Under the pieces are notes generated by a model. It was not told where the DNA came from. It was given only the letters and a program-made list of their open reading frames with translations, and ran no database searches. 64,000 nucleotides of DNA, taken from contig CAYPFM010000003.1 of assembly GCA_964410185.1 (NCBI GenBank), positions 85,534-149,533 of the forward strand, read 5' to 3'. Below, piece by piece: positions 17,780 to 47,461 of the stretch (position 1 is the stretch's first letter; every line of letters starts with the position of its first letter). Position numbers and translations under genes: made by a program. The DNA comes from an uncultured Candidatus Saccharibacteria bacterium. Lineage in GTDB: Bacteria; Patescibacteriota; Saccharimonadia; Saccharimonadales; JAUPVS01.

Positions 17780-19552
17780 TTACCCTGCGATATCGTAGGC
17801 TTTAAGTTTCTTCTTGGTTGTTTCGGTGTGACCCTGCTGCAGCTTGAGTAGTTGATCATAGATACCGCCACTGGTAGCGAGCTCTTCTGGCGAACCGACT
17901 TCGCTGACCTTGCCGCCCTGCAGGGTGATGATGGTGTCGACGTTCTGAATCGTACTCAGGCGGTGGGCGATGATTATGGTGGTACGGCCCTTCATCAGGC
18001 GCTCTAAGGCTTCTTGGACCATCTGTTCGCTCTTGCTGTCTAAGGAGCTGGTGGCTTCGTCCAGCACCAGGATAGGCGCGTCTTTAAGCAAGGCTCGGGC
18101 AATGGCGATGCGCTGCTTTTGGCCACCGCTCAACTTGAGGCCACGTTCGCCAATTTCGGTGTCGTAGCCTTTTTCGAGCTTCTTAATAAATTCGTCGGCA
18201 TTGGCCGCTTTGGCGGCGGCGGTCACCTCGGCGCTGCTGGCCTTGGGGTTAGCGTAGGCAATGTTTTCGCGAATCGTGCCGCTAAACAGCGCTGGATCCT
18301 GAAAGACGACGCCAATCTGGCTGCGCAGGCTGTTCTGGCTGACTTCATTGATGTTCTGACTGTCGATAAAGATCGCGCCTTGTTGGGGTTCGTACAAGCG
18401 CAGTAACAAGTTGGTCAGCGTCGTCTTGCCTTCGCCGCTTTCGCCCACCAAAGCGACTTTGGTGTCTGGCTTAATCTTGAGCGAGACGTCTTTGAGTACC
18501 GGCTTGCTGTCGTAGGCAAACGAAACGTGATCAAACTCAACTTCACCAGTTGGGACGGTCAGTTTTTTGGCGTTGGCCACGTCGTCGATCTGGGGCTCGA
18601 TGCTCATAATCTCAAAGTAGTCTTTACTGTCAGCCACAGCCCGTTGGGTATTCTCGACCAAAAAGCTAATGGTGAAAATTGGGATGCGGATTTGCATAGA
18701 GTACAGAATCAGGGCGACGGCCTGACCGGGCGTAAAGTGGCCGTTTAGGGCCTGCACAAAAATCAGCACATAGACACCAAAAAAGATGACGTTTAAAACC
18801 AGGCGTCGTTGGACATCGCGGGTGTGCCAGAGCTGTGACTGTGGCTTGGTGATGCCGACAACTTTGGTGTAGTAACTCCTAAAAAAGCTCAGTTCGTGCT
18901 TTTCCTGAATGAAGCTCTTGACCACCTTAATCTGGCCAATCGACTCGGCAAAGCGACCATTGGCAATGTCGAGGTTGTGGTTGATCTTGGCCTGGTACTT
19001 CTGCCACTTGCCACTGGTTTTGACGGTCATGAAAACGTAGATTGGGTACAAGCTAAACAACAGTAGCGCGATAGGCCAGCTAAAGTAGGCAATAATCGCC
19101 AGCGCGAAGATCGTGCTGAAAATAAACTGCAGGAAGTTGTTGCTCCACATCTGCATGAAGTTGCCGATCTGGCCGATGGAGCGGTTGAGACGGTTGATGA
19201 TTTTACCCGACAGTTCGGTATCAAAATAGCCCTGCGGCAGGCTGAGCAAGTGTTGGTAGTAGTTGTAGCTGAGCAGGTTCATCAGGCGGGCTGACATCTG
19301 GTCACCAAAGTAGCCGCCGATGTTACTGAGGAGTGTTGAGGCCACATCTAAAATAAAGATACCAACGGCCAGCCAAACAACCTTAGAAATCTGACCTGGT
19401 CCTGCGCCGTGGTTAATGGCATCGATCGCTCGTCCGCTCAAAAGCGGCACCAGCAAGCCAACCACCGCCACCAAGATCGAAATAACACTGACGGCTACGT
19501 AATAGCGCCAGAGCGACTTGGTATAGGTAATGATTCTCCAGATCGACTTCAT
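17780..19552 (-). CDS. ABC transporter, fused permease/ATP-binding exporter (MsbA/LmrA type)
   Basis: 590 aa with a 6-TM N-terminal domain followed by Walker A GESGEGKTT, the LSGGQKQR signature and Walker B ILVLDEATS. Confidence 0.9.
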   Translation of the reverse strand: MKSIWRIITYTKSLWRYYVAVSVISILVAVVGLLVPLLSGRAIDAINHGAGPGQISKVVWLAVGIFILDVASTLLSNIGGYFGDQMSARLMNLLSYNYYQHLLSLPQGYFDTELSGKIINRLNRSIGQIGNFMQMWSNNFLQFIFSTIFALAIIAYFSWPIALLLFSLYPIYVFMTVKTSGKWQKYQAKINHNLDIANGRFAESIGQIKVVKSFIQEKHELSFFRSYYTKVVGITKPQSQLWHTRDVQRRLVLNVIFFGVYVLIFVQALNGHFTPGQAVALILYSMQIRIPIFTISFLVENTQRAVADSKDYFEIMSIEPQIDDVANAKKLTVPTGEVEFDHVSFAYDSKPVLKDVSLKIKPDTKVALVGESGEGKTTLTNLLLRLYEPQQGAIFIDSQNINEVSQNSLRSQIGVVFQDPALFSGTIRENIAYANPKASSAEVTAAAKAANADEFIKKLEKGYDTEIGERGLKLSGGQKQRIAIARALLKDAPILVLDEATSSLDSKSEQMVQEALERLMKGRTTIIIAHRLSTIQNVDTIITLQGGKVSEVGSPEELATSGGIYDQLLKLQQGHTETTKKKLKAYDIAG

Positions 19553-32559: not shown

Positions 32560-32579
32560 CGCAGCCCAACTATAGCAAA
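32560..32579 (-). promoter_or_regulatory. Orphan copy of the conserved promoter motif (TTTGCTATAGTTGGG, no ATG downstream), overlapping the stop codon of the 32570..33775 gene and abutting the tRNA-like 3' end
   Basis: Plus strand: gcagcCCAACTATAGCAAActgcg. The CTATAG core carries the TAG stop of the metallopeptidase-like gene. On the minus strand it points antisense into the tRNA-like element. Confidence 0.3.
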
Positions 32580-33775
32580 CTGCGCACAAAGCCTGGTATT
32601 GCCTCAGTCGCTTCGTCATATTCGGCGTCGGCCATGAGGTTGCCGAGCTCTGTGAGCACATTACGTCCCGGGAATGCGCGAGCTAATTGGCGCTTGAGCT
32701 TGCGCTGGGCCGTCTGTCGCCGGCTGGTTGAATCTTCAAAGTAGGCGTTTATAAACAGTTTTATGTCGACGGGCTTCTTACCGCCGTTACAGAGGACATT
32801 CAGCAATTCCCGTTCTGGACGATAGGAACTCAACAGGTGGCGCTGTGATTCAGGATCGACAGTTTGTATGTCCGAACCGTAATAGCCCATGTTTAAGGCG
32901 ACGTGCTCGGTGACGGCTTCGTTGAGGGCCTGGCCAGCATTCTTGTGATCCTTATCAAATAAGCGATACAGTCCATGGTGTATGACGTCATCACCAAATC
33001 GACCTTGGTCGTTCTTGCCCGGCAGTTCAACCCCCACCATCACGTGCGTCAACTCATGCGCAATCGTTTTGGGAAATGAATATTGTGGCAGAAAGACCTC
33101 TTTTGACGAACCGTTTCGGTGCGTACTGGTGAATGCTGATGCGCCGTTTTCGTGCAGAAGCAAGCCGTCATCCATCGTGATATTAATATGTTCTAGTGTT
33201 TCAATTCGTTCTGGTTTGAGCACGGCTTCGGGCATCCAACCCTCTCTTGTCGCCTGTTTTAGATTACGGACATACTCACGTTTATGCCAAGGCCACTCCT
33301 GGTCCATAAAGCGCTGGCGGTTTGCTGCTACCTGCCAACTATGCCATTGCAAAAAGTTTAACAGGGCATCGTCTGCAACTGCTGGCGTTCCATCCGGATT
33401 GGCTTGGGCTAAGCGCTCAATAGCCAAGTGGCTATATTCAACCCCTAGTATATTCATTAAAAACTCTGGTACTTTGGTCTGCACCAAATCGAAACTGACT
33501 CGGGATAGTTGTTTTGGCTCAACTTCAGCCAGACGGTTGCGCACTTCCTGCAGATAATGTGTCATGCTCGTTTCAGCTGGCGGCAACTCATAATCCAGCC
33601 AGGGTTCAGCATCAACGAGAATGACCGCTCTGGCCAAATCACCTTGGACAGCAAACTGACCAATGGTATTACAAGAGTCCGGTGCGAACTCAGCTTCTAG
33701 CGCCTCGCACCGGGCGTCAAACTGCGCGTGTAACTCTATAGGGATTCCGTCTTCGACCGAAGTAGACATCCACAT
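32570..33775 (-). CDS. Putative zinc-dependent metallopeptidase (HExxH)
   Basis: 401 aa with the motif AHELTHVMVG. TAAAAT lies directly adjacent to the ATG, so the true start may be the second ATG (MSTSVED). Confidence 0.5.
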   Translation of the reverse strand: MWMSTSVEDGIPIELHAQFDARCEALEAEFAPDSCNTIGQFAVQGDLARAVILVDAEPWLDYELPPAETSMTHYLQEVRNRLAEVEPKQLSRVSFDLVQTKVPEFLMNILGVEYSHLAIERLAQANPDGTPAVADDALLNFLQWHSWQVAANRQRFMDQEWPWHKREYVRNLKQATREGWMPEAVLKPERIETLEHINITMDDGLLLHENGASAFTSTHRNGSSKEVFLPQYSFPKTIAHELTHVMVGVELPGKNDQGRFGDDVIHHGLYRLFDKDHKNAGQALNEAVTEHVALNMGYYGSDIQTVDPESQRHLLSSYRPERELLNVLCNGGKKPVDIKLFINAYFEDSTSRRQTAQRKLKRQLARAFPGRNVLTELGNLMADAEYDEATEAIPGFVRSLL

Positions 33776-33908
33776 ATTTTAGCATGTTTTGGGGTTTTTG
33801 TCGAGGGTTACTGCAGTAAAATCTTTACTGACCGGGCAGGACGTCTAGCCACAAACTTTGTATTTTTACGAGTTTTGTTGTATTATATACCGAAGTATAG
33901 ATTTATTT

Positions 33909-35060
33909 ATGATTAAAGTTGACACCCTCCAAACCCTGGCGCAACATCTTGATTTTGAGTTTAATCCAGATGTGTGTGCTGTTTCTAAGCCAAATTGGGC
34001 AAGTCGCTACCCAAGAGCTGCAATTGCTGAAGTTGGCGAGACGCGCTATGCCGATTTTGTTGTCGAGCCCCACAAACGGCCAAGCTACAGCCCCGACCGC
34101 GTCAGTGGTGTGGTTGAGGAAAACCTCGATTGGCAAGAGGAACAGGAATGGGCTAACGAAGCGGAGCCAGATGACGCGCATGATAAAACGCTCCATGGTT
34201 TGATTGAAGATCGCAAGGGCTACATTGCGCTGTACTCGGAATACAACGCGCTCGATAATCTTTACAGTTTTGAGTTAGTAAACGGTGCGAACGGTGCCAA
34301 TGCCGTACACCAGCTGCTTGGGCGAACCCCCAGCGTTGACATACCAGAATACGTGACAAGCAAGGCCAACCTGAATCCAAGCGGAATTTTTACTGCCGGC
34401 CAAATTACAGAAAATATTGCCGAAATGAAGATGCTGGTTCCGAATGTTAATGACTTCTACTTTACTAGACATGACCTTGGCACGGGAGGCTTTTATCATG
34501 GGCCGTCTTGGCCTAACACGACCCCTGTCATTTACCGCCACCTGTCGAAGGTGGCGCAAGACGTCGTTAAAGAAAACGGTGGACGCATCCATTGCACGGA
34601 AGCCGTGGCTGGTGGCGATGCTCGTCCGCAAGAGGTCGTTGTCATCGCCAAAGCTCTCGACGACTTAATTGCCCGCGTCAAACCAAGCATTGATGCGTTG
34701 GCAGTTGCAGAACTTCGTATCCGCGACGGTCGCTATGACACAGTCAGTGATGCCGAAATTGCCCACAAACTCCTTTGGAGTGCCTTCGGCCGGGCCCGTA
34801 CCAGCCAATCACGCATCGGCAAAAACTTGCTTGCGGTCACGCCAGAGACTCCCGACAGTGAGCGGGACCGTCGTGGCTACTGGATTGGCATGCAACTCGA
34901 GGCCGGCGTGATTGACACCAGACTGGCCCTGCACGAAGTCCGCCCCCACCCCGAAGCCACCGACGCCCAAACCCTCCGAGCACTCAACATCTTGCACATA
35001 CTCAAGACCGAATACGACCGCCGCTTTGCCGACAACAAAGACCAGTTATTAGTGGCGTAA
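33909..35060 (+). CDS. Hypothetical protein (about 383 aa); the only plus-strand gene in the cassette region
   Basis: Intact ORF. TATAGA-N7-ATG at MIKVDTL suggests a leaderless start. No recognised domain. Confidence 0.45.
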   Translation: MIKVDTLQTLAQHLDFEFNPDVCAVSKPNWASRYPRAAIAEVGETRYADFVVEPHKRPSYSPDRVSGVVEENLDWQEEQEWANEAEPDDAHDKTLHGLIEDRKGYIALYSEYNALDNLYSFELVNGANGANAVHQLLGRTPSVDIPEYVTSKANLNPSGIFTAGQITENIAEMKMLVPNVNDFYFTRHDLGTGGFYHGPSWPNTTPVIYRHLSKVAQDVVKENGGRIHCTEAVAGGDARPQEVVVIAKALDDLIARVKPSIDALAVAELRIRDGRYDTVSDAEIAHKLLWSAFGRARTSQSRIGKNLLAVTPETPDSERDRRGYWIGMQLEAGVIDTRLALHEVRPHPEATDAQTLRALNILHILKTEYDRRFADNKDQLLVA

Positions 35061-39218: not shown

Positions 39219-41519
39219 TTAGTTTGTGCTTTCGTCAATAATTCTAAAGTGTTCTGGGGAGATTGTTTTTATCATATCAAGCATTTCAGCCACAGCACGC
39301 TTAGTACCTGTTACCAATGCAGGATCAAAGCCAGAACCGGTTATGTGAGACTGGTCATTTATGAACTTATATATTGCGTCTAATTTATCTTTATCGTAGC
39401 CACTTGCTTTTAGGGCGATGATTTTCTTATAAGCATTCTCTCCGCTCGGGACGCTAAACATTGTGAAGGTGTCCCAGACTTTTCTGGCGATGTTGGGTAT
39501 AGGATATGCCTTTGCGATCGTATCATCCTGGGAATCGCGAAGCTGCTTTAAAGTTTTGAAAAGATAGTGGTACTCGCTTTCATGTTCTCGCAACTCCTTG
39601 TCCATAAGCTCTAAGTGGGCATTCCGATCATCTCCATCAAAAGTATTCTTGATCATGAAAAAGCCACAATCACTACCGTGGTTGTTATTTTGCTGCCAAT
39701 TGAGTAGTAGTTTCAAAAAATCAAAATTGTGCGTGAGTATGAAGCATTGACCAGCGTCAGCTACAGCATTCTTCAAGAAGCTAAATGCTTGGTATAGAGA
39801 ATTTGAGTCGAGACTGGAAATCGGATCATCAATAACAACGATGCCATCTTGAACATCAAAATCATCACCACCTAGATGAACTACAAAATATACAAATGCT
39901 ATCGCAGTTTTTTCGCCCTCACTAAGATTTGTCGCTAAGTCTTTCCCGCGAAGTATGTCGTAGCCCCTACTAACTTTGACTTTTTGCCCATATTCATCCT
40001 CTTCAATTTCTATATGCGGCTGGAACTGAAGCTCTTTGTGCCCTAAGAACATTATGAGTTTTTCATTGATATGATCGCATGCTTTATGGTCAGAAGATAT
40101 TTGTGCACGTGCTTGTGTAATCATCTCGTTAAGGGCGGTAATCTCGATATCCAGCTGATCGGCTTCCTGGATAGCCACATCTTTACTTTGCTTAAGAGCC
40201 TTAACCTCATCAAATATACCGCTTAGGAAGTGTTGCTTGAGTTTTGTGGTTGCTGATTCTTTAACTGCATCAAAATCAGCGGTTGTATCGTTGTGGACCT
40301 TTATAACCTTATTAGCTCTTTCAATCACTAAAGTAAGCTCGTCAAGCCTAAGACCGGGTTCAAGATTAATCCTCTCTGTTGTTTTAGCTTTTTTATTGCG
40401 AACGTCTGTTTCAAGTTGTTTAATGTCAGCCAATAGGTTTGTTTTTGCAGCAGCAAAGCCCTTGGTGTCTTTAGAAAATCCGTTTTGTAAATTACCATAG
40501 AGCCTGGTCTTATCAGGCAGCTCGATCTCATTAATAATTGTCCTCACACCAGCTAGTTTTCTCAACAGCTCGTCAAGACTGTCCTTAAGTTTTCTGTCTG
40601 CTTCATTGAAGTGTTTTGCTAAATCGGAAATCCTGGACAGCGGGATTGGCTGCCGACAGTATTCGCATTTGGCAGAATGGTGTGCGGCATGAATGGCGAT
40701 ACCCGTTTCAACCCAAGTAGATATGTCAGAATTATCACTTAACCTCTTGATGGTATTTGCCTCAACAGTCTGCGCTAATAAACGTACAGCCTCATCTGAC
40801 AACTCTTGAAGGAGTGTTGTGGGGTCTTTTTCCTCTCCTGCTACAACTAATTTTCGGAGCGCAAGTTTTTTAACAACCGGTTGCGACTCTTGCTTTACAG
40901 CAACAAGGTACTTATCGAGATCGTCCTGACTAAGCTCGGCTTTGCCTTTGAGTTCTTTAAAATCTGCATCTGCTTGCTGACGTCGATAGGTTCGGAGCGC
41001 GTTACCACCCATAGCCGTGCCGATAGTCTTAGCAATGTCAGTGAACTTAGTTTCATATAATGTTTTATCCTGTTTTGCCTTTGCCCGCTTAGACTTTAAA
41101 AGGGAGACTTTGCCGGGCACATCAGGCGTTTCTGGATCGCCTTGTAGCTCTTTTTGATATTTCTCAATCTGTTCAATCAATTCCTTATTTTCTTCTCCGA
41201 GCAGAATGGAGATTGAGTTTGCTCTACTATCAAGAATCTTCACATTCTTTTCAATATAATCTTGATTAAAAATGCGGATTTTTTCAGGGTAGGCGTCAGC
41301 TTGCGTATACTTATTGCCAGCTTCGTCTTCGACTTCATATTCAAGTCCTGGCAACGGATTGCCGCCAATACCATCATATAATCGTGTTAACGTTGTTTTA
41401 CCACAACCGTTCCAGCCATATATGAGGTTTGCTTTCTTGAAGTAAGAAAGCCGTGCAGGTCGATTGTAATCCTTGAATACAAGCCCCAAATTCCTAATTT
41501 TGTTCACTTTCTTGATCAT
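39219..41519 (-). CDS. RloC-like ABC/Rad50-type ATPase with CxxC zinc hook and C-terminal putative anticodon-nuclease domain (defence / abortive-infection candidate)
   Basis: Walker A GWNGCGKTTL sits near the N-terminus. A roughly 450-aa coiled-coil insertion contains CEYC. The ABC signature LSEGEK, Walker B VVIDDPISSLD and H-loop LTHN follow, then an extra C-terminal domain of about 150 aa. The gene is markedly AT-rich compared with its neighbours. The start is the ATG at MIKKVNK (the track ORF begins at an upstream TTG). Confidence 0.55.
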   Translation of the reverse strand: MIKKVNKIRNLGLVFKDYNRPARLSYFKKANLIYGWNGCGKTTLTRLYDGIGGNPLPGLEYEVEDEAGNKYTQADAYPEKIRIFNQDYIEKNVKILDSRANSISILLGEENKELIEQIEKYQKELQGDPETPDVPGKVSLLKSKRAKAKQDKTLYETKFTDIAKTIGTAMGGNALRTYRRQQADADFKELKGKAELSQDDLDKYLVAVKQESQPVVKKLALRKLVVAGEEKDPTTLLQELSDEAVRLLAQTVEANTIKRLSDNSDISTWVETGIAIHAAHHSAKCEYCRQPIPLSRISDLAKHFNEADRKLKDSLDELLRKLAGVRTIINEIELPDKTRLYGNLQNGFSKDTKGFAAAKTNLLADIKQLETDVRNKKAKTTERINLEPGLRLDELTLVIERANKVIKVHNDTTADFDAVKESATTKLKQHFLSGIFDEVKALKQSKDVAIQEADQLDIEITALNEMITQARAQISSDHKACDHINEKLIMFLGHKELQFQPHIEIEEDEYGQKVKVSRGYDILRGKDLATNLSEGEKTAIAFVYFVVHLGGDDFDVQDGIVVIDDPISSLDSNSLYQAFSFLKNAVADAGQCFILTHNFDFLKLLLNWQQNNNHGSDCGFFMIKNTFDGDDRNAHLELMDKELREHESEYHYLFKTLKQLRDSQDDTIAKAYPIPNIARKVWDTFTMFSVPSGENAYKKIIALKASGYDKDKLDAIYKFINDQSHITGSGFDPALVTGTKRAVAEMLDMIKTISPEHFRIIDESTN

Positions 41520-41667
41520 TCTCAACTCAACTTGCAAACTTACATATTAGATGTTGCTTCTAGTATACTCTGGTGACCCTTGAAAGTCAGGCTACACCAG
41601 CAGGAGTTGTACCAGCCAAAATATGCTCTACTGTTGTTCGAGATACTACCAGATCTAATCTTGGAGC

Positions 41668-44196
41668 CTAAAGCCGCTCGGCTTTAAGTGTCTTCTTCGC
41701 CGCCTCAGCCACCGCATCCAAAACCCCAGAAACTTCGCTTGTCTTCAACGTCCGCTCAAAATGCCACAAAGTCACTCGCAACGAAACGTGTTTCGCACCC
41801 GTATCAGAACGGTAAATATCCAGCGGTTCTAGCGACCATTCATAGCCATGTTCTGCACTGGCCGTAACAAGGACTTGTTCCGTCAAAGCCGCGACGGCGG
41901 CGTAACTCGTATCAGAAGGGACTTTAAAGCTGATGTCCTGGGAGGTTCGGGGGTATTTGGCCAGTGGCAGGTAGCCGGCGGCCGAGTTGGCAGCGGCTTG
42001 CATTAGTTCCCCAAGACCTAGTGCGAAGCCAGATGTAAATGCTGGCAATTTTAGCGCTGCGCGGACTTCGGCCCGGAATTCGCCAATTGCGCCCAGCACC
42101 ACATCCGTACCAGCGACCGAGACCATCGCGCTGCGGCTTTGGTCATAGGGTTTCATGGAGGCGTAATCAACCGGTTCCGTAATTGCGGTGTAGGTGAGCG
42201 ACAAGCCCAGTTGTTCGCCAAGGTAGTCTAAGTATTTGCGGGCTTGGTAGTAGGGCGCGCCGGCGTATTGCTTGGCCGCTTTGTCGTTGGCCGCAAACAC
42301 CAGCGCCAGCATGTCGTATTCGGCCGGCAGGCCATCCGCATCTTTGGGGTAAACTTTGCTGTGCACTTTGTTCAGCTCAAATAAGGCAAATTGGTCGTAA
42401 CCCGCCTTAATGTTGCCGTGCACTTTTTCTAACAACGATGGCATTAGCGACATGCGGTAATACTGCAGGTCCGGGCTCAGCGCATTGCTAATTTCAAAGG
42501 CCTGCGCGGCGTCCTGGCCAACCTGCTCAAACAACCGGCCATGCACAAAACTGTAACCGAGCACTTCGTTGGCGCCGGCTTTACTCAAAACATCCCGTAG
42601 CTGTTTTTTAAAATCAAATTGCGGATTGGTTTGGGCTGGTGTCAGATCGCGCACCGGCAGCTTAAGCGGCAAATGGTCGTAGCCGTACAGCCGGCCAACT
42701 TCTTCGACAATATCTTCTGGAATCGCAATATCCGTCCGCCAGAATGGTGCCGTCACTTCCAGCTGGTCCAGGTGATGCTTCACCTCAAACTCAACATTTT
42801 CCAGCCGGCGGACAATTTCTACCGGCTTGAGCGTCACGCCCAGGCGATCGTTAATAAATGTGGCCGAGACTTTAACGGTTGGGTTCTTGGGTAGTGTGGC
42901 TTTGGCATCAACCGGCTTGCCGACGACCTGCGCCGTTGGTACCAGTTCTTTAGTCATTTCGGCGGCCTTGGCCAAGACGGCTTCGGTCTGCCATGGGCTT
43001 TGACCTTTGTTAAAGCGGGTCACCGCATCGGTAAACAAACCATGCGTCATGCTGGTCTTGCGAATGTTGTACATGTCAAAGTTGGCCGATTCAATAATGA
43101 TGCGAGTAGTGTTGGCGTCAATCTCGGAGTTGTTGCCGCCCATGACGCCACCAAGAGCAATGGGTTTGTCTTGGTCACAAATCAGGATGGCTTCGGCACG
43201 AGGTTCGATGGTTTTGCCATCCAGCAGGCCGAGCTTTTCACCCTTCTTGGGGTGGCGCACCACGATGTTAACGTGTCCGTCCTTGGCGACCTTGTCAAAA
43301 TCAAAGGCGTGCAGCGGCTGGCCGGTGGTCAGCATTAGGTAGTTGGTCATATCGACGATGTTGTTGATGCTCTTGGCACCCAAGCGTGTCAGGAAGGTTT
43401 GTAGCCAAACCGGGCTTGGCCCAACTTTGATGCCGGTCATCACAACGGCTTGGTAGCGCGGCACCAGCCTGGGGATATCAACTTTGACGACCAAGCTTTT
43501 AACCGCTTCGTCATCGCCACTGGTCAACTTGGGCGGATTGATATACCAATCGGGCGAGGTGAACTTTTTGTCCTGGATACCCGCCAACTCGCGAGCCACG
43601 CCCAACATGCCAAAGCAATCTGGCCGGTGCGTAAACATCTTGTTCTCAACATCGATAATGGTGTCGTCCAAACCGTAAAGGTTCTTGAACGGCGTGCCGG
43701 GCTTAGTGTTTTCTTCCCCAACGTCCCCAGCCTCAATTTCCAAAATCCCATCGTGGTTGTCGCTAATCCCCAGCTCCGCCGGGCTGGCCAACATCCCATT
43801 GCTGGTTTCGCCGCGTAACTCGCGCGCTTCCAACGTGAACTTTTCTTTCTCCCAAGTGCTCGGCACAATGCTGCCGGGCGGCAACCAAGCCACCGTCAAT
43901 CCTGCGCGGCAATTGGGCGCACCGCAAACCACCTGCACCAGGCCTTGCTCGTCTCGCTTAACGTTTTTGGCTACGCCGCCATCGTCAATTTTGCAGACGT
44001 TCAATTTGTCGGCATTAGGGTGCTTGACGCAGCTGACGACCTTGGCCACCAAGATGTTGTCGTACCGCTCGCCAATGTTGATGACTTCTTCGATTTCGCC
44101 GAGTTGGGCGCCAATTTTTTTGGTCAGCTCATCAACCGGTATCGCGACTGCGTCTCGGTAGCCATACCAACGAATGTGATTTAGTGAAAATTTCAT
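41668..44196 (-). CDS. pheT: Phenylalanine-tRNA ligase beta subunit
   Basis: 842 aa with an N-terminal tRNA-binding domain (HPNADKL), B3/4, B5 and FDX-ACB domains. Confidence 0.9.
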   Translation of the reverse strand: MKFSLNHIRWYGYRDAVAIPVDELTKKIGAQLGEIEEVINIGERYDNILVAKVVSCVKHPNADKLNVCKIDDGGVAKNVKRDEQGLVQVVCGAPNCRAGLTVAWLPPGSIVPSTWEKEKFTLEARELRGETSNGMLASPAELGISDNHDGILEIEAGDVGEENTKPGTPFKNLYGLDDTIIDVENKMFTHRPDCFGMLGVARELAGIQDKKFTSPDWYINPPKLTSGDDEAVKSLVVKVDIPRLVPRYQAVVMTGIKVGPSPVWLQTFLTRLGAKSINNIVDMTNYLMLTTGQPLHAFDFDKVAKDGHVNIVVRHPKKGEKLGLLDGKTIEPRAEAILICDQDKPIALGGVMGGNNSEIDANTTRIIIESANFDMYNIRKTSMTHGLFTDAVTRFNKGQSPWQTEAVLAKAAEMTKELVPTAQVVGKPVDAKATLPKNPTVKVSATFINDRLGVTLKPVEIVRRLENVEFEVKHHLDQLEVTAPFWRTDIAIPEDIVEEVGRLYGYDHLPLKLPVRDLTPAQTNPQFDFKKQLRDVLSKAGANEVLGYSFVHGRLFEQVGQDAAQAFEISNALSPDLQYYRMSLMPSLLEKVHGNIKAGYDQFALFELNKVHSKVYPKDADGLPAEYDMLALVFAANDKAAKQYAGAPYYQARKYLDYLGEQLGLSLTYTAITEPVDYASMKPYDQSRSAMVSVAGTDVVLGAIGEFRAEVRAALKLPAFTSGFALGLGELMQAAANSAAGYLPLAKYPRTSQDISFKVPSDTSYAAVAALTEQVLVTASAEHGYEWSLEPLDIYRSDTGAKHVSLRVTLWHFERTLKTSEVSGVLDAVAEAAKKTLKAERL

Positions 44197-44537
44197 ATTT
44201 TTGTCCTTACAAATAGCATTTCGTGTTCGTGCTCCGATGGATTGTGAATTTTGTGCTGCGTGTCGGCGGGGAAAATAAATACATCGCCGGGCGCGTAGCC
44301 ATACTCACCATCGTCGTCGAACACCAAACCTTCGCCCTTTAATACTACCATCACCTCTTCAATCCCCGGATGGTCGTGCCAATCAAACGTCTGGCCGCCT
44401 GGCAAATAGCCGTGCGTTACCGCCTCTAGATTCTTCCCGCTCATATGGTCGGCCGAGGCATACACTTTATGCGCGCCGCTGCCACCGTGGGCTTCTTCTT
44501 TTACGATTTCGTTGCTCGGACGTTTGATTATTTTCAT
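44193..44537 (-). CDS. Cupin-domain protein
   Basis: 114 aa with the cupin motifs G(x)5HxH...PxG...H (DWHDHPGIEEVMVVLKGEG ... IFPADTQHKIHN). Confidence 0.65.
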   Translation of the reverse strand: MKIIKRPSNEIVKEEAHGGSGAHKVYASADHMSGKNLEAVTHGYLPGGQTFDWHDHPGIEEVMVVLKGEGLVFDDDGEYGYAPGDVFIFPADTQHKIHNPSEHEHEMLFVRTKI

Positions 44538-45280
44538 TATTTGCCCTTTATCGAATAGCCGCCGTCGACTAACAAATCCGATCCTGTCATATAACTTGCG
44601 TCGTCTGAAGCCACGAACATCACTGCCTTGGCAATCTCGGCTGGTTGCGCCATCCGCTCCATGATTGTACCCTTATTGATACGGTTAAAGGTCTCCTCGT
44701 TCCAGCCCTTCACTTGGTCGGTTTCCACATAGCCTGGACTGACGGTATTAAAGCGAATCTCGGGATAAGCCTTGGCGAGCGCCGCATTAAGCGAGCGAAC
44801 CCCGGCTTTGCTTGGTGCGTAGGTTAAGGTACTCATCGTCGCCAAGTTGGTGTGCCCCTTGATAGAACTGATACTGACGACACTTCCCTGCTTTTTCGCC
44901 TGCATTCCTGGCAGGACCGCTTCTACACAGTGCAACATGCCTAACACGTTCACTCGATATTCTTCGATAGCTTTTTCGTCATCAACATCGGCGACGTCAC
45001 TTGTGCCGGTGTGTGCAATACCAGCATTATTTACCAAAATGTCGATGGTGCCAACTTCTTTTAATAATTCCTCAATGGCCGTATGTGTGGCGGCCTTGTC
45101 GGCGACATCAAAGACGGTCAGCAACGAACCTTCCAACGCCTGATGCGTTGCCTTCAGCTCATCACTTTCGGTTCGCCCATGCACAATAACTTTGTAACCC
45201 TGTTTATGAGCAAGTTCGGCGGTAGCTTTGCCGATGCCACGGCTGGAGCCGGTGATTAGGATAGTCTTTGGGTTGCTCAT
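44537..45280 (-). CDS. SDR-family NAD(P)-dependent oxidoreductase
   Basis: TGSSRGIGKA cofactor motif, NNAG, and the S..Y...K catalytic triad region. Confidence 0.85.
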   Translation of the reverse strand: MSNPKTILITGSSRGIGKATAELAHKQGYKVIVHGRTESDELKATHQALEGSLLTVFDVADKAATHTAIEELLKEVGTIDILVNNAGIAHTGTSDVADVDDEKAIEEYRVNVLGMLHCVEAVLPGMQAKKQGSVVSISSIKGHTNLATMSTLTYAPSKAGVRSLNAALAKAYPEIRFNTVSPGYVETDQVKGWNEETFNRINKGTIMERMAQPAEIAKAVMFVASDDASYMTGSDLLVDGGYSIKGK

Positions 45281-45819
45281 ATTTCTACTCCTATCAATCG
45301 TTCAAGTAACGGAAATTCTCTAAATTTGGGGTCGCCGCTAGTGCTAAAGTGGCCCTCGTTTTGGATGACCAGCGTACCCCCCAAGTTGTCGAAGAGTTTG
45401 TTTCCTTGCTTGTCGTCACAGCCCCACGGATCATTCTTGGAATTAAGAAAAACAAAGTCTTGGGCGTGTGCTTTAATTCTTTCCCAGTCATAGCTGTCTT
45501 TAATAATTGGCTGATGAATTGGCAACTGTTCGCAGTAGCCAGCTACTAGCACTGCCTGCCTAATGGTTGGTTCAATCTGCTCCAAAAGACTAAGAACAAG
45601 TACCGAGCCAGAAGAGTGACCAATCAAGACGGTTTCTTCATCAAACGTATGGTTCTTTAACACCTCAGGCAAGAACTCTTCAATCGGCCCCTTGTTGATG
45701 TTTGGATAATGCGGAACTTCTACGCTATACCCGCGCGCTTCCAGTTTAGTCTGTAACCAGGCGTACCATGACTGACTCGGGTCAGAATCGGTGCCGTGAA
45801 AAATTATGGCGTTTTTCAT
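45277..45819 (-). CDS. Alpha/beta hydrolase, YdeN/RBBP9-like serine hydrolase (paralog of 36479..37036)
   Basis: IGHSSG, DPW and GHF motifs. Confidence 0.7.
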   Translation of the reverse strand: MKNAIIFHGTDSDPSQSWYAWLQTKLEARGYSVEVPHYPNINKGPIEEFLPEVLKNHTFDEETVLIGHSSGSVLVLSLLEQIEPTIRQAVLVAGYCEQLPIHQPIIKDSYDWERIKAHAQDFVFLNSKNDPWGCDDKQGNKLFDNLGGTLVIQNEGHFSTSGDPKFREFPLLERLIGVEI

Positions 45820-46430
45820 CCGATAAGCTCCCATAACTTTGGTTTTACAATCTCTGCAAGCAGGGCGTGGCCGGCGTCGTTGGGATGTAGCTTGTCGTAG
45901 CTAAAGACGTTTTCTTCGGCCGACTCAAAGGCTTCGCGGACATCGATGAACGGCAGACCGGCGGCTTCGACGATGGCCTTTTGGGCGGCTTCGTACTCCA
46001 CAATTCGCTCGTCGGAGTAAACAGCATCCTTAAATGGAACTTCTGGCTCGCCCATTGGCGTGGTGCCGACAAACAAAATTTTGTCACTGTGCTTTTTAGC
46101 GATATCGATAATGGCTTGGGTGTTTTGCTTGAATTGCTCCAGCGTGGTTTCGGGCACGTCATTACGAGTACGTTCGTCGTTGGCGTTAAAGTTAAACACA
46201 AAAACCAGCGGCCAATTAGCCGAATAGCGTGCCGCAGTTTCGGCCCCTAGGCGCTCTAAAATTTTCGTACTACTATTCCCGCCAATGCCAAGGTTAACTA
46301 TCTGTAGCTTGAACTTGCCCTCTGAAGCTACTGTTTGCTGGTGCGCCTCGCGCTTGAGCCGATCAACCCAGCCGCCCTGGCTATCCCAGGCACCGTAGGC
46401 AATGCTGTCGCCAAAGACGAGGATTCTCAT
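45816..46430 (-). CDS. SGNH/GDSL-family hydrolase
   Basis: N-terminal block I VFGDSIAYG, with a C-terminal D..H. Confidence 0.75.
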   Translation of the reverse strand: MRILVFGDSIAYGAWDSQGGWVDRLKREAHQQTVASEGKFKLQIVNLGIGGNSSTKILERLGAETAARYSANWPLVFVFNFNANDERTRNDVPETTLEQFKQNTQAIIDIAKKHSDKILFVGTTPMGEPEVPFKDAVYSDERIVEYEAAQKAIVEAAGLPFIDVREAFESAEENVFSYDKLHPNDAGHALLAEIVKPKLWELIG

Positions 46431-47461
46431 TTAAACTGCCTCAAAAATTCCAGTTTGCCGGATTCGCTGTGGCGGACGTCTTCGATGTTTTGCTTCATCA
46501 TCACCAGGCGGTCGATGCCAACGCCCCAGGCAAAGCCGGTGTATTTGGCGGGGTCGATGCCAGCCATCTTGAGGACATTGGGATGAATCATGCCGCAGCC
46601 CAACAGTTCAATCCAGCCAGCGTAGCTACAAACTTGGCAGCCCTTCTTTTGGCAGAATGGGCAGCTGATGGCGAACTCAAAGCTCGGTTCGGTAAACGGA
46701 AAGTAGAATGGCTGGGTTTTGACGTCGAGCTCTTGCTGGTAATACTCTTCTAGAAAGGTCTTGAGGGTGGCAATCAAGTTGCCGGCGTTAACGCCCTCGC
46801 CCACATAGACACCTTCCAGTTGGTAGAAGGTATGTTCGTGGCGCGCGTCGAGGTCTTCGTTACGAAAAACGCGACCGGGGATAACTGTGGCAATTGGGCG
46901 TCCGGCCTTCAGCTCCTTCTTGCCAGCTTTGAGCACCCGGTTTTGCATGGTGCTGGTGTGAGCCGGTGCAATCAGGCCATCTTTGGTCATAAAGGTGTCG
47001 TAGTCGTCGCGGGCTGGGTGGCCTTCGGGAAAGTTCAAGGTTTCGAACATGTGATAGTCGTCGTCCAGCTGGCGTGACTCGACCGCTGTAAAGCCCATCC
47101 GATAAAAGATGTCCAAGACCTTGTCGAGTTCGGTCATCAACGGGTGGCGCGAGCCTTGCTCGGCACTTAACAGACGTGGTTTGTTGGCGCCGACATTGAC
47201 GTCAAATGGTGCGGTCACATCGATGGGCTCCAGCTTTTCTTGGGCGATGCCAGCTTTTTTAACAGCCTCGGCTAGGTCGGCCTTGAGCTGGTTAATTTCT
47301 TTACCAAACGCGGCTTTTTGGTCGTTTGGTAACTGGGGTAGTTCGGCGTAGAGCGCTTTAAGCTCGGTGGCCCGTAAGATGCTGGCTTTGTCATCCAGCT
47401 TGGCGAGCCGCTTTTGTAGCAGCTCGGCCGTGTCGGCGATTTTCTTATTTTGGTAGCTCAT
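46427..47461 (-). CDS. pheS: Phenylalanine-tRNA ligase alpha subunit
   Basis: Class II aaRS motifs including FPFTEPSFE and GWIELLGCGM. TGGTATAAT-N8-ATG is upstream. Confidence 0.9.
   Translation of the reverse strand: MSYQNKKIADTAELLQKRLAKLDDKASILRATELKALYAELPQLPNDQKAAFGKEINQLKADLAEAVKKAGIAQEKLEPIDVTAPFDVNVGANKPRLLSAEQGSRHPLMTELDKVLDIFYRMGFTAVESRQLDDDYHMFETLNFPEGHPARDDYDTFMTKDGLIAPAHTSTMQNRVLKAGKKELKAGRPIATVIPGRVFRNEDLDARHEHTFYQLEGVYVGEGVNAGNLIATLKTFLEEYYQQELDVKTQPFYFPFTEPSFEFAISCPFCQKKGCQVCSYAGWIELLGCGMIHPNVLKMAGIDPAKYTGFAWGVGIDRLVMMKQNIEDVRHSESGKLEFLRQFK

Follow-up and report, generated by a model that had tools for sequence, protein, structure and literature searches.

A solitary and probably horizontally acquired gene for a putative RloC-family tRNase in a Saccharibacteria genome

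The DNA considered here is a stretch of 64,000 nucleotides (64 kb; referred to throughout as 'the window') from contig CAYPFM010000003.1 of an uncultured Candidatus Saccharibacteria bacterium (GenBank assembly GCA_964410185.1). On its minus strand lies a long gene, directly downstream of pheT (41668..44196), in the same orientation and separated from it by a gap of 130 bp. The product is a single polypeptide. In it, the two lobes of an ATP-binding cassette (ABC) ATPase head lie on either side of a helical insert whose centre bears a CxxC motif, and a C-terminal domain with an HEPN fold follows them. A reading made earlier from the letters of the DNA alone (the 'original prediction') took it for an RloC-like protein. 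In this we agree: the gene product is very probably a member of the RloC family. The gene as a whole is best described as a solitary, horizontally acquired representative of that family in Saccharibacteria, and its product as a putative tRNase.

The longest open reading frame (ORF) begins at a TTG codon and specifies 772 amino acids, as originally predicted; the true start, however, is most likely an ATG six codons further in. An identical protein in the database (P0001, 100% identity) is 766 amino acids long and opens at this ATG, and the consensus N-terminus of the homologues, MIxKINK, begins there, too. For these reasons we take the shorter version to be the likely coding sequence (CDS), while residue numbers, here and in Table 1, follow the 772-amino acid ORF. 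The sequence motifs that the original prediction had named (Walker A, CEYC, LSEGE, VVIDDPISSLD and LTHN) were all found where it had placed them.

Table 1. Features of the RloC-like gene, its product and the adjoining spacer (positions are those of the window)
Feature	Position	Strand	Basis or remark
Longest ORF, 772 aa	39219..41537	minus	TTG start at 41537
Likely RloC-family CDS, 766 aa	39219..41519	minus	ATG at 41519 (MIKKVNK...)
N-terminal lobe, ABC ATPase head, residues 7-105	41223..41519	minus	motif, beta strands, Rad50/SMC fold matches
Walker A GWNGCGKT, residues 41-48	41394-41417	minus	motif; invariant G46/K47/T48
Helical insert between ATPase lobes, residues 115-498	40044..41195	minus	AlphaFold model; counterpart of RloC coiled-coil/zinc-hook region
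CxxC hook motif CEYC, C291-C294	40656..40667	minus	W275..G279 before; R302, H309-F310 after
C-terminal lobe, ABC ATPase head, residues 499-640	39618..40043	minus	motifs; weak Rad50 head match
ABC signature LSEGE, residues 538-542	39912-39926	minus	motif
Walker B + D-loop VVIDDPISSLD, residues 567-577	39807-39839	minus	motif
H-loop His603 in LTHN	39729-39731	minus	motif
C-terminal HEPN-fold nuclease domain, residues 641-772	39222..39617	minus	fold matches, triad
Triad part R685-x3-D689	39471-39485	minus	motif
Triad part S730-H731	39345-39350	minus	motif
Candidate promoter CTGACT-17-TATACT	41562..41590	minus	weak consensus match, pheT-rloC spacer (130 bp)

Following Davidov and Kaufmann (PMC2610378), RloC proteins are defined by ABC motifs like those of PrrC, by an insert of helices at whose centre lies a CX2C zinc hook, and by a C-proximal catalytic triad, Arg-X3-Glu-X36-52-His, in which the His is often preceded by Ser. 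In the enzyme from Geobacillus kaustophilus, GkaRloC, both the triad (R692, E696 and H737) and the hook (C291G) were proved by mutagenesis, and the substitution E696A inactivates the protein (PMC2610378). The Saccharibacteria protein has the ABC motifs in full, Walker A, signature, Walker B and H603, and between the Walker A motif and the signature it has a helical insert with a CX2C pair. Its triad reads R685-X3-D689-X41-S730-H731; Arg, Ser and His are all in place, and the X41 spacing falls within the published X36-52. The domain order is that of RloC throughout, and the length, 766 amino acids, is within the published range of 683-895.

We assessed conservation in two alignments that both include the query, one of 120 close sequences (A1) and one of 78 distant ones (A3; 26-34% identity). 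Invariant in both are C291, C294, W275, G279, F310, the Walker A and Walker B residues, H603, R685, S730 and H731, as well as G46/K47/T48, S539, E542, D570, D571, D577 and Q597. The CEYC pair at 291-294 was correctly foreseen as lying in the middle of the insert, and neither of its cysteines varies in any of the 198 aligned sequences. Between the triad acid and the His there are 38-47 residues in A1, and 36-48 in A3 save for one sequence with 30. The position of the acid is acidic throughout, although the residue shifts: of the 120 close sequences, 79 have Asp and 41 have Glu, whereas the 78 distant ones divide into 75 with Glu and 3 with Asp. Judged from these alignments, the sole departure from the literal RloC motif is the conservative replacement of Glu by Asp, a trait typical of this clade. 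The RloC orthologue table of 2008 makes room for triads termed 'suboptimal' (PMC2610378).

The same distribution of Asp, predominant among close relatives and rare among distant ones, is one reason to consider that a protein of this Asp-variant RloC architecture might do another job, acting on a different RNA substrate (another site in tRNA, mRNA or rRNA) or being switched on by something besides DNA ends. Others are the low identity to characterised RloC, which over the hook region reaches no more than 26%, the varied targets of HEPN RNases taken as a class (PMC3710099), and the extra small HEPN gene downstream in some relatives, which hints at functional variation. Yet the remaining catalytic and regulatory residues are invariant family-wide, which argues for one conserved mechanism, and the exchange of Asp for Glu is a conservative one, with both acids alternating within one clade. 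On balance, we think a different job unlikely.

Profile searches place the protein in the same family. Pfam AAA_13 covers residues 24-735 with 405.7 bits (cut-off 36), and the PADLOC model PDC-S06 (PDLC04894) matches residues 7-768 to model positions 1-735 of 740, with 739 bits and E = 1.4e-222. The insert on its own (residues 115-498) also matches both AAA_13 and PDC-S06. The PADLOC model for PrrC matches residues 502-756 (E = 3.7e-14) when the full-length protein is the query, whereas the C-terminal domain, searched alone, falls below the reach of this model. The full-length PrrC match is for that reason discounted, its signal coming mostly from the ATPase lobe, and the likeness to PrrC is judged by the triad and the HEPN fold. 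Hidden Markov model searches, which the original prediction had proposed as a check, thus bear it out for AAA_13 over the full length and not for the nuclease domain by itself. No specific NCBIfam model exists for the protein.

Much weaker PADLOC matches to LmuB (5.6e-14) and AriA (1.7e-07), together with AriA and retron ATPases among the fold matches, raise the question of whether the gene is instead a component of a multi-gene ABC-ATPase system (Lamassu LmuB, PARIS AriA, or PtuA of Septu and retrons) that lacks its partner here, or else an inactive remnant. In E-value, LmuB and AriA fall short of PDC-S06 by over 200 orders of magnitude, and the protein carries an effector domain of its own. 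There is no LmuA, AriB or PtuB-like gene nearby, and no partner is conserved among the loci of the homologues. As for a remnant, the ORF is intact and every catalytic motif is present. We reject the Lamassu, PARIS and Septu assignments on these grounds, the far weaker profiles, the protein's own effector and the missing partner, and regard this whole class of explanation as very improbable.

Names attached to homologues point the same way as the profiles. The homologues listed number 120, at 41-63% identity and all similar in length; 14 of them, at 42-55% identity, bear the JGI name 'wobble nucleotide-excising tRNase', and another, at 49% identity, the NCBI name 'Translation-disabling ACNase RloC'. 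A relative as distant as 28% identity likewise bears the RloC-type JGI name. Where hosts are named, they are Parcubacteria, Nomurabacteria, Margulisiibacteriota, Desantisbacteria, alphaproteobacteria and one gammaproteobacterium. An exhaustive search recovered 4,308 representatives of 50%-identity clusters at E <= 1e-3, of which 1,163 lie at E <= 1e-30, and most of the best 150 matches span essentially the full length. Together with the full-length AAA_13 and PDC-S06 matches, these names uphold the RloC identity that was first proposed. On the evidence here, PDC-S06 corresponds to RloC-like AAA_13 proteins.

AlphaFold2, run on the alignment of 120 sequences, returned a model with a mean predicted local distance difference test (pLDDT) score of 87. 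It has beta-rich head lobes at residues 8-90 and 503-644, and between them an insert (residues 115-498, ~380 amino acids) that is mostly helical, and split into many helices of no more than 41 residues. A short hairpin that joins helices 270-286 and 300-309 holds the CxxC motif. In RloC proteins the hook is expected at the apex of an antiparallel coiled coil, with zinc coordinated where two subunits of a dimer meet; what the model offers on this point is its secondary structure and its fold matches to Rad50, SMC and RecN proteins with coiled coils. A crude heptad score exceeds the 99th percentile of shuffled sequences only at ~301-340 and ~441-480. The insert, which the original prediction had called a very long coiled-coil-like insertion, is thus helical with heptad signal in these two stretches, but its helices are broken; 'coiled-coil-like' is a fair label for the C-terminal arm and a weaker one for the N-terminal arm.

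Compared with the PDB by Foldseek, the model resembles Rad50, the heads of cohesin, condensin and other SMC proteins, RecN, AriA and retron ATPases; compared with viral models, it resembles proteins like Rad50, SbcC and SMC. By sequence, no close relative was found among solved structures, the best match being a marginal one to the Rad50 head 5da9 over residues 533-611. The C-terminal domain taken alone matches HEPN domains by fold, and the HEPN superfamily is where the nuclease domain of RloC and PrrC belongs (PMC3710099). As modelled, this is an ordinary RloC HEPN nuclease, and the fallback idea of the original prediction, that a new effector might have been fused to a hook ATPase, is therefore unsupported. 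Nor is the domain especially rich in Arg, Glu and His, as had been suggested: these make up 14% of it, against 11-15% elsewhere in the protein.

Since the best matches among solved structures are Rad50, cohesin and SMC heads and RecN, and since SMC_N and RecF profiles match weakly, one might suppose the protein to be a housekeeping ATPase of the Rad50, SbcC, RecN or SMC type, engaged in DNA repair or chromosome maintenance. The profile matches of this sort are far under their thresholds (SMC_N, 23.5 bits against a cut-off of 40), and neither the neighbours nor the ORFs scanned in the window include the Mre11/SbcD partner. The additional HEPN domain, the foreign composition of the gene and its absence from the locus in 52 of 52 relatives (described below) also speak against housekeeping. 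We consider this explanation effectively refuted, and its probability close to nil.

Set beside known systems, the protein is nearest to RloC, represented by GkaRloC and by AbaRloC of Acinetobacter baylyi (COG4694; AAA_13). It shares with these the CxxC at the same position in a helical insert, the C-terminal Arg-X3-acid-X41-Ser-His, and the genomic habit of a solitary, laterally mobile gene, often AT-rich or of foreign composition. It differs in the Asp that replaces the catalytic Glu, in its low similarity to GkaRloC, and in its host, an epibiont of the Saccharibacteria (candidate phyla radiation, CPR, or Patescibacteria), a lineage absent from the orthologue table of 2008. E. coli PrrC likewise combines the ABC motifs with an HEPN-type nuclease at the C-terminus, whose triad is Arg/acid/His. 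PrrC is about half the size, however, and has no coiled-coil or hook insert where this protein has one of ~380 amino acids with CxxC; and PrrC always occurs inside a type I restriction-modification (R-M; hsd) locus, whereas no hsd genes were found in the window. In Rad50, SbcC and phage T4 gp46, too, a helical insert divides the ABC head and carries a CxxC hook at its centre. Compared with theirs, the insert of this protein is much shorter, an HEPN RNase has been added, no Mre11 or SbcD is encoded nearby, and the sequence matches are below thresholds. By the features that define PrrC and Rad50/SbcC, the protein belongs to neither.

Direct comparison with GkaRloC is confined to the hook. A fragment that we rebuilt from the optical character recognition (OCR) text of the 'QUERY' (GkaRloC) rows in Fig. 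S1 of PMC2610378 aligns to residues 221-348 with 26% identity, 55% positives and E = 2e-11, and in this alignment the CxxC is in register, as are the WV..G ahead of it and the HF behind it. The fragment retrieved no database protein at E <= 1e-10, and the OCR sequence must for this reason be regarded as unreliable. The hook region thus appears to resemble the published RloC hook alignment; this is not a clean comparison with GkaRloC, since the attribution of the rows is uncertain. The first hook cysteine, C291 in our numbering, is C285 when counted from the ATG; the published hook mutant of GkaRloC is C291G.

The gene stands out from its surroundings by composition. Its guanine plus cytosine (GC) content is 0.412, and 0.395 at third codon positions (GC3), compared with 0.541 and 0.642 for pheT and 0.510 for the whole window. 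The original prediction had described the gene as AT-rich among neighbours of 50-55% GC; this is true with respect to pheT (41.2% versus 54.1%), but genes on the downstream side are at 45-48%. By its PheT, the window belongs in Saccharibacteria (TM7, order Saccharimonadales), where the best species representatives are at 71-76% PheT identity. We compared the locus with 52 related Saccharibacteria loci, flanks of up to 10 kb included, and a relative of the protein occurs within 10 kb downstream of pheT in none of them (0/52). Synteny with the nearest informative relatives (L039 and L004) resumes only at ~22-26 kb of the window, and the intervening ~26.2-41.6 kb is therefore a variable region, with the gene at its pheT-proximal edge. 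This is the arrangement originally proposed, a gene at the end of an accessory region beside pheT, and the suggested check for presence or absence in relatives has likewise turned out in its favour. Besides this gene, the variable region encodes a protein like PLD/cardiolipin synthase, MetK, HAD and NUDIX proteins, an APH-type kinase, a serine hydrolase, a peptidase of family S51 and a secreted G5-domain protein.

Among the neighbours and the large ORFs that were scanned in the window, we found neither an R-M system nor an integrase, and no gene that might be a partner, so that 'solitary', a term that the original prediction used of RloC genes, is appropriate; solitary, unlinked to R-M and apparently moved laterally, the gene resembles other rloC genes in its setting. 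Around it there are only short flanking repeats at chance level, with nothing resembling att sites, and its flanks contain no Rfam elements. Terminator calls nearby do not go beyond the shuffle expectation, and promoter-like sites in the gene region are not enriched (7 versus 5.3 +/- 2.1 in shuffles). The candidate promoter of Table 1 may, tentatively, be the gene's own; co-transcription with pheT is also possible. The best explanation for the foreign GC and the lack of a counterpart at 52 related loci is that this Saccharibacteria lineage acquired the gene horizontally, as was first suspected, probably from a donor of lower GC. The contigs that carry homologue genes have 33-45% GC, and therefore fit such a donor for a gene of 41% GC.

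Relatives of the gene are found in mobile surroundings. The closest listed homologue (63% identity; locus L056) has a large serine recombinase in its vicinity, as well as a LexA-like gene, and at L054 (928-8265) a module of serine recombinase plus RloC-like gene has been duplicated in tandem, the two RloC-like copies being 90% identical. Relatives are also encoded on (pro)viral contigs. In PHROGs there is a full-length match to phrog_2801 (E = 3e-51), and in IMG/VR relatives occur on no fewer than 80 contigs, where the best 80 of 96 confirmed matches have 21-30% identity; in 20 full-length IMG/VR relatives that were checked, hook and triad are each kept in 19.

No partner gene is conserved among the homologue loci, and the downstream genes differ: HEPN_AbiV at L053 (8329-8970), a gene of ~212 amino acids with RNKLLH (Rx4H) at L054 (8313-8951), and DUF2779 at L055. 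The ~212-amino acid genes that follow the RloC-like genes of L053 and L054 are unrelated to one another by BLAST and have no counterpart in the window, and we reject the notion of a conserved downstream partner on that account. In some relatives, such genes may be accessory HEPN partners.

Other observations concern the remainder of the window. The pheT gene is split from pheS (46427-47461) by four genes (44193-46430) for a GDSL lipase, a serine hydrolase, a short-chain dehydrogenase and a cupin, while the majority of the 52 related loci have pheS directly adjoining pheT. Two divergent ORFs of ~400 amino acids, 32570-33775 (-) and 33858-35060 (+), have no Pfam or PADLOC match, and the latter has a 51%-identical counterpart at locus L003. 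ARAGORN finds no tRNA or tmRNA gene in the 64 kb. An ORF of 590 amino acids, 17780-19552 (-), matches PADLOC 'mad3'/'mad8' ABC-ATPase models in part (E = 1.3e-32, residues 465-559); it is probably a housekeeping ABC protein rather than a defence gene, since it is conserved in 32 related loci.

How might such a protein work? By analogy with the characterised RloCs (PMC3458546, PMC3874168), the C-terminal HEPN-fold RNase, fused in one chain to a Rad50/SMC-type ABC head that is split by the hook insert, would be held silent by the hook/ATPase module, as in GkaRloC and AbaRloC. The trigger would be the binding of DNA ends by the head, with hydrolysis of ATP, as might occur when DNA is broken during phage attack or genotoxic stress. 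Once freed, the RNase would cut tRNAs in the anticodon loop and, as GkaRloC does, excise the wobble nucleotide; translation would cease, and the infection would be aborted. Being solitary, the gene would need no linked silencer. Excision of the wobble nucleotide, DNA-dependent ATPase activity and responsiveness to zinc are biochemical properties of RloC (PMC2610378, PMC3458546, PMC3874168), and zinc binding, a DNA-dependent ATPase, a tRNA target and a role in defence are what we would expect of this protein by extension.

We put the probability of this full reading, an RloC-type tRNase of defence or stress, at roughly three in four. Several points weigh against it: the catalytic acid, Asp689 here, is Glu in the published enzymes; the nuclease domain alone escapes the PrrC model; the N-terminal arm of the insert has a weak heptad signal; the one alignment to GkaRloC is limited to a hook fragment of unreliable text; and PDC-S06, though matched over its full length, is a computational label for a single-gene candidate in phage defence and not a characterised system.

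Most of the named members of the Asp-triad clade belong either to CPR/Patescibacteria (with Parcubacteria, Nomurabacteria and the Saccharibacteria genome described here) or to the alphaproteobacteria. It is conceivable that this clade is a functionally distinct subtype of RloC with another RNA target or pattern of cleavage, and that it has a role in a three-way conflict of phage, epibiont and host; we offer this as a speculation, and a rather improbable one. If it were true, an enzyme of an obligate epibiont with a tiny genome could act in such a conflict rather than as a simple abortive-infection switch.

For RloC as a family, the gene leaves present understanding unchanged, while it draws attention to a triad in which Glu has conservatively given way to Asp, the prevailing form in one clade. 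It shows, too, that PDC-S06, at least for this branch, is RloC by the published definition. We found no report of an RloC structure, and because none has been solved, this compact and confidently modelled orthologue of 766 amino acids might serve as a structural target. CPR bacteria are already known to depend on R-M and abortive infection, and Saccharibacteria, which for the most part have no CRISPR-Cas, are presumed to do likewise (PMC4742961); in the literature we found no substantive link between RloC and Saccharibacteria. To the defence repertoire of these ultra-small, epibiotic bacteria, the gene described here would add an intact member of the RloC family.

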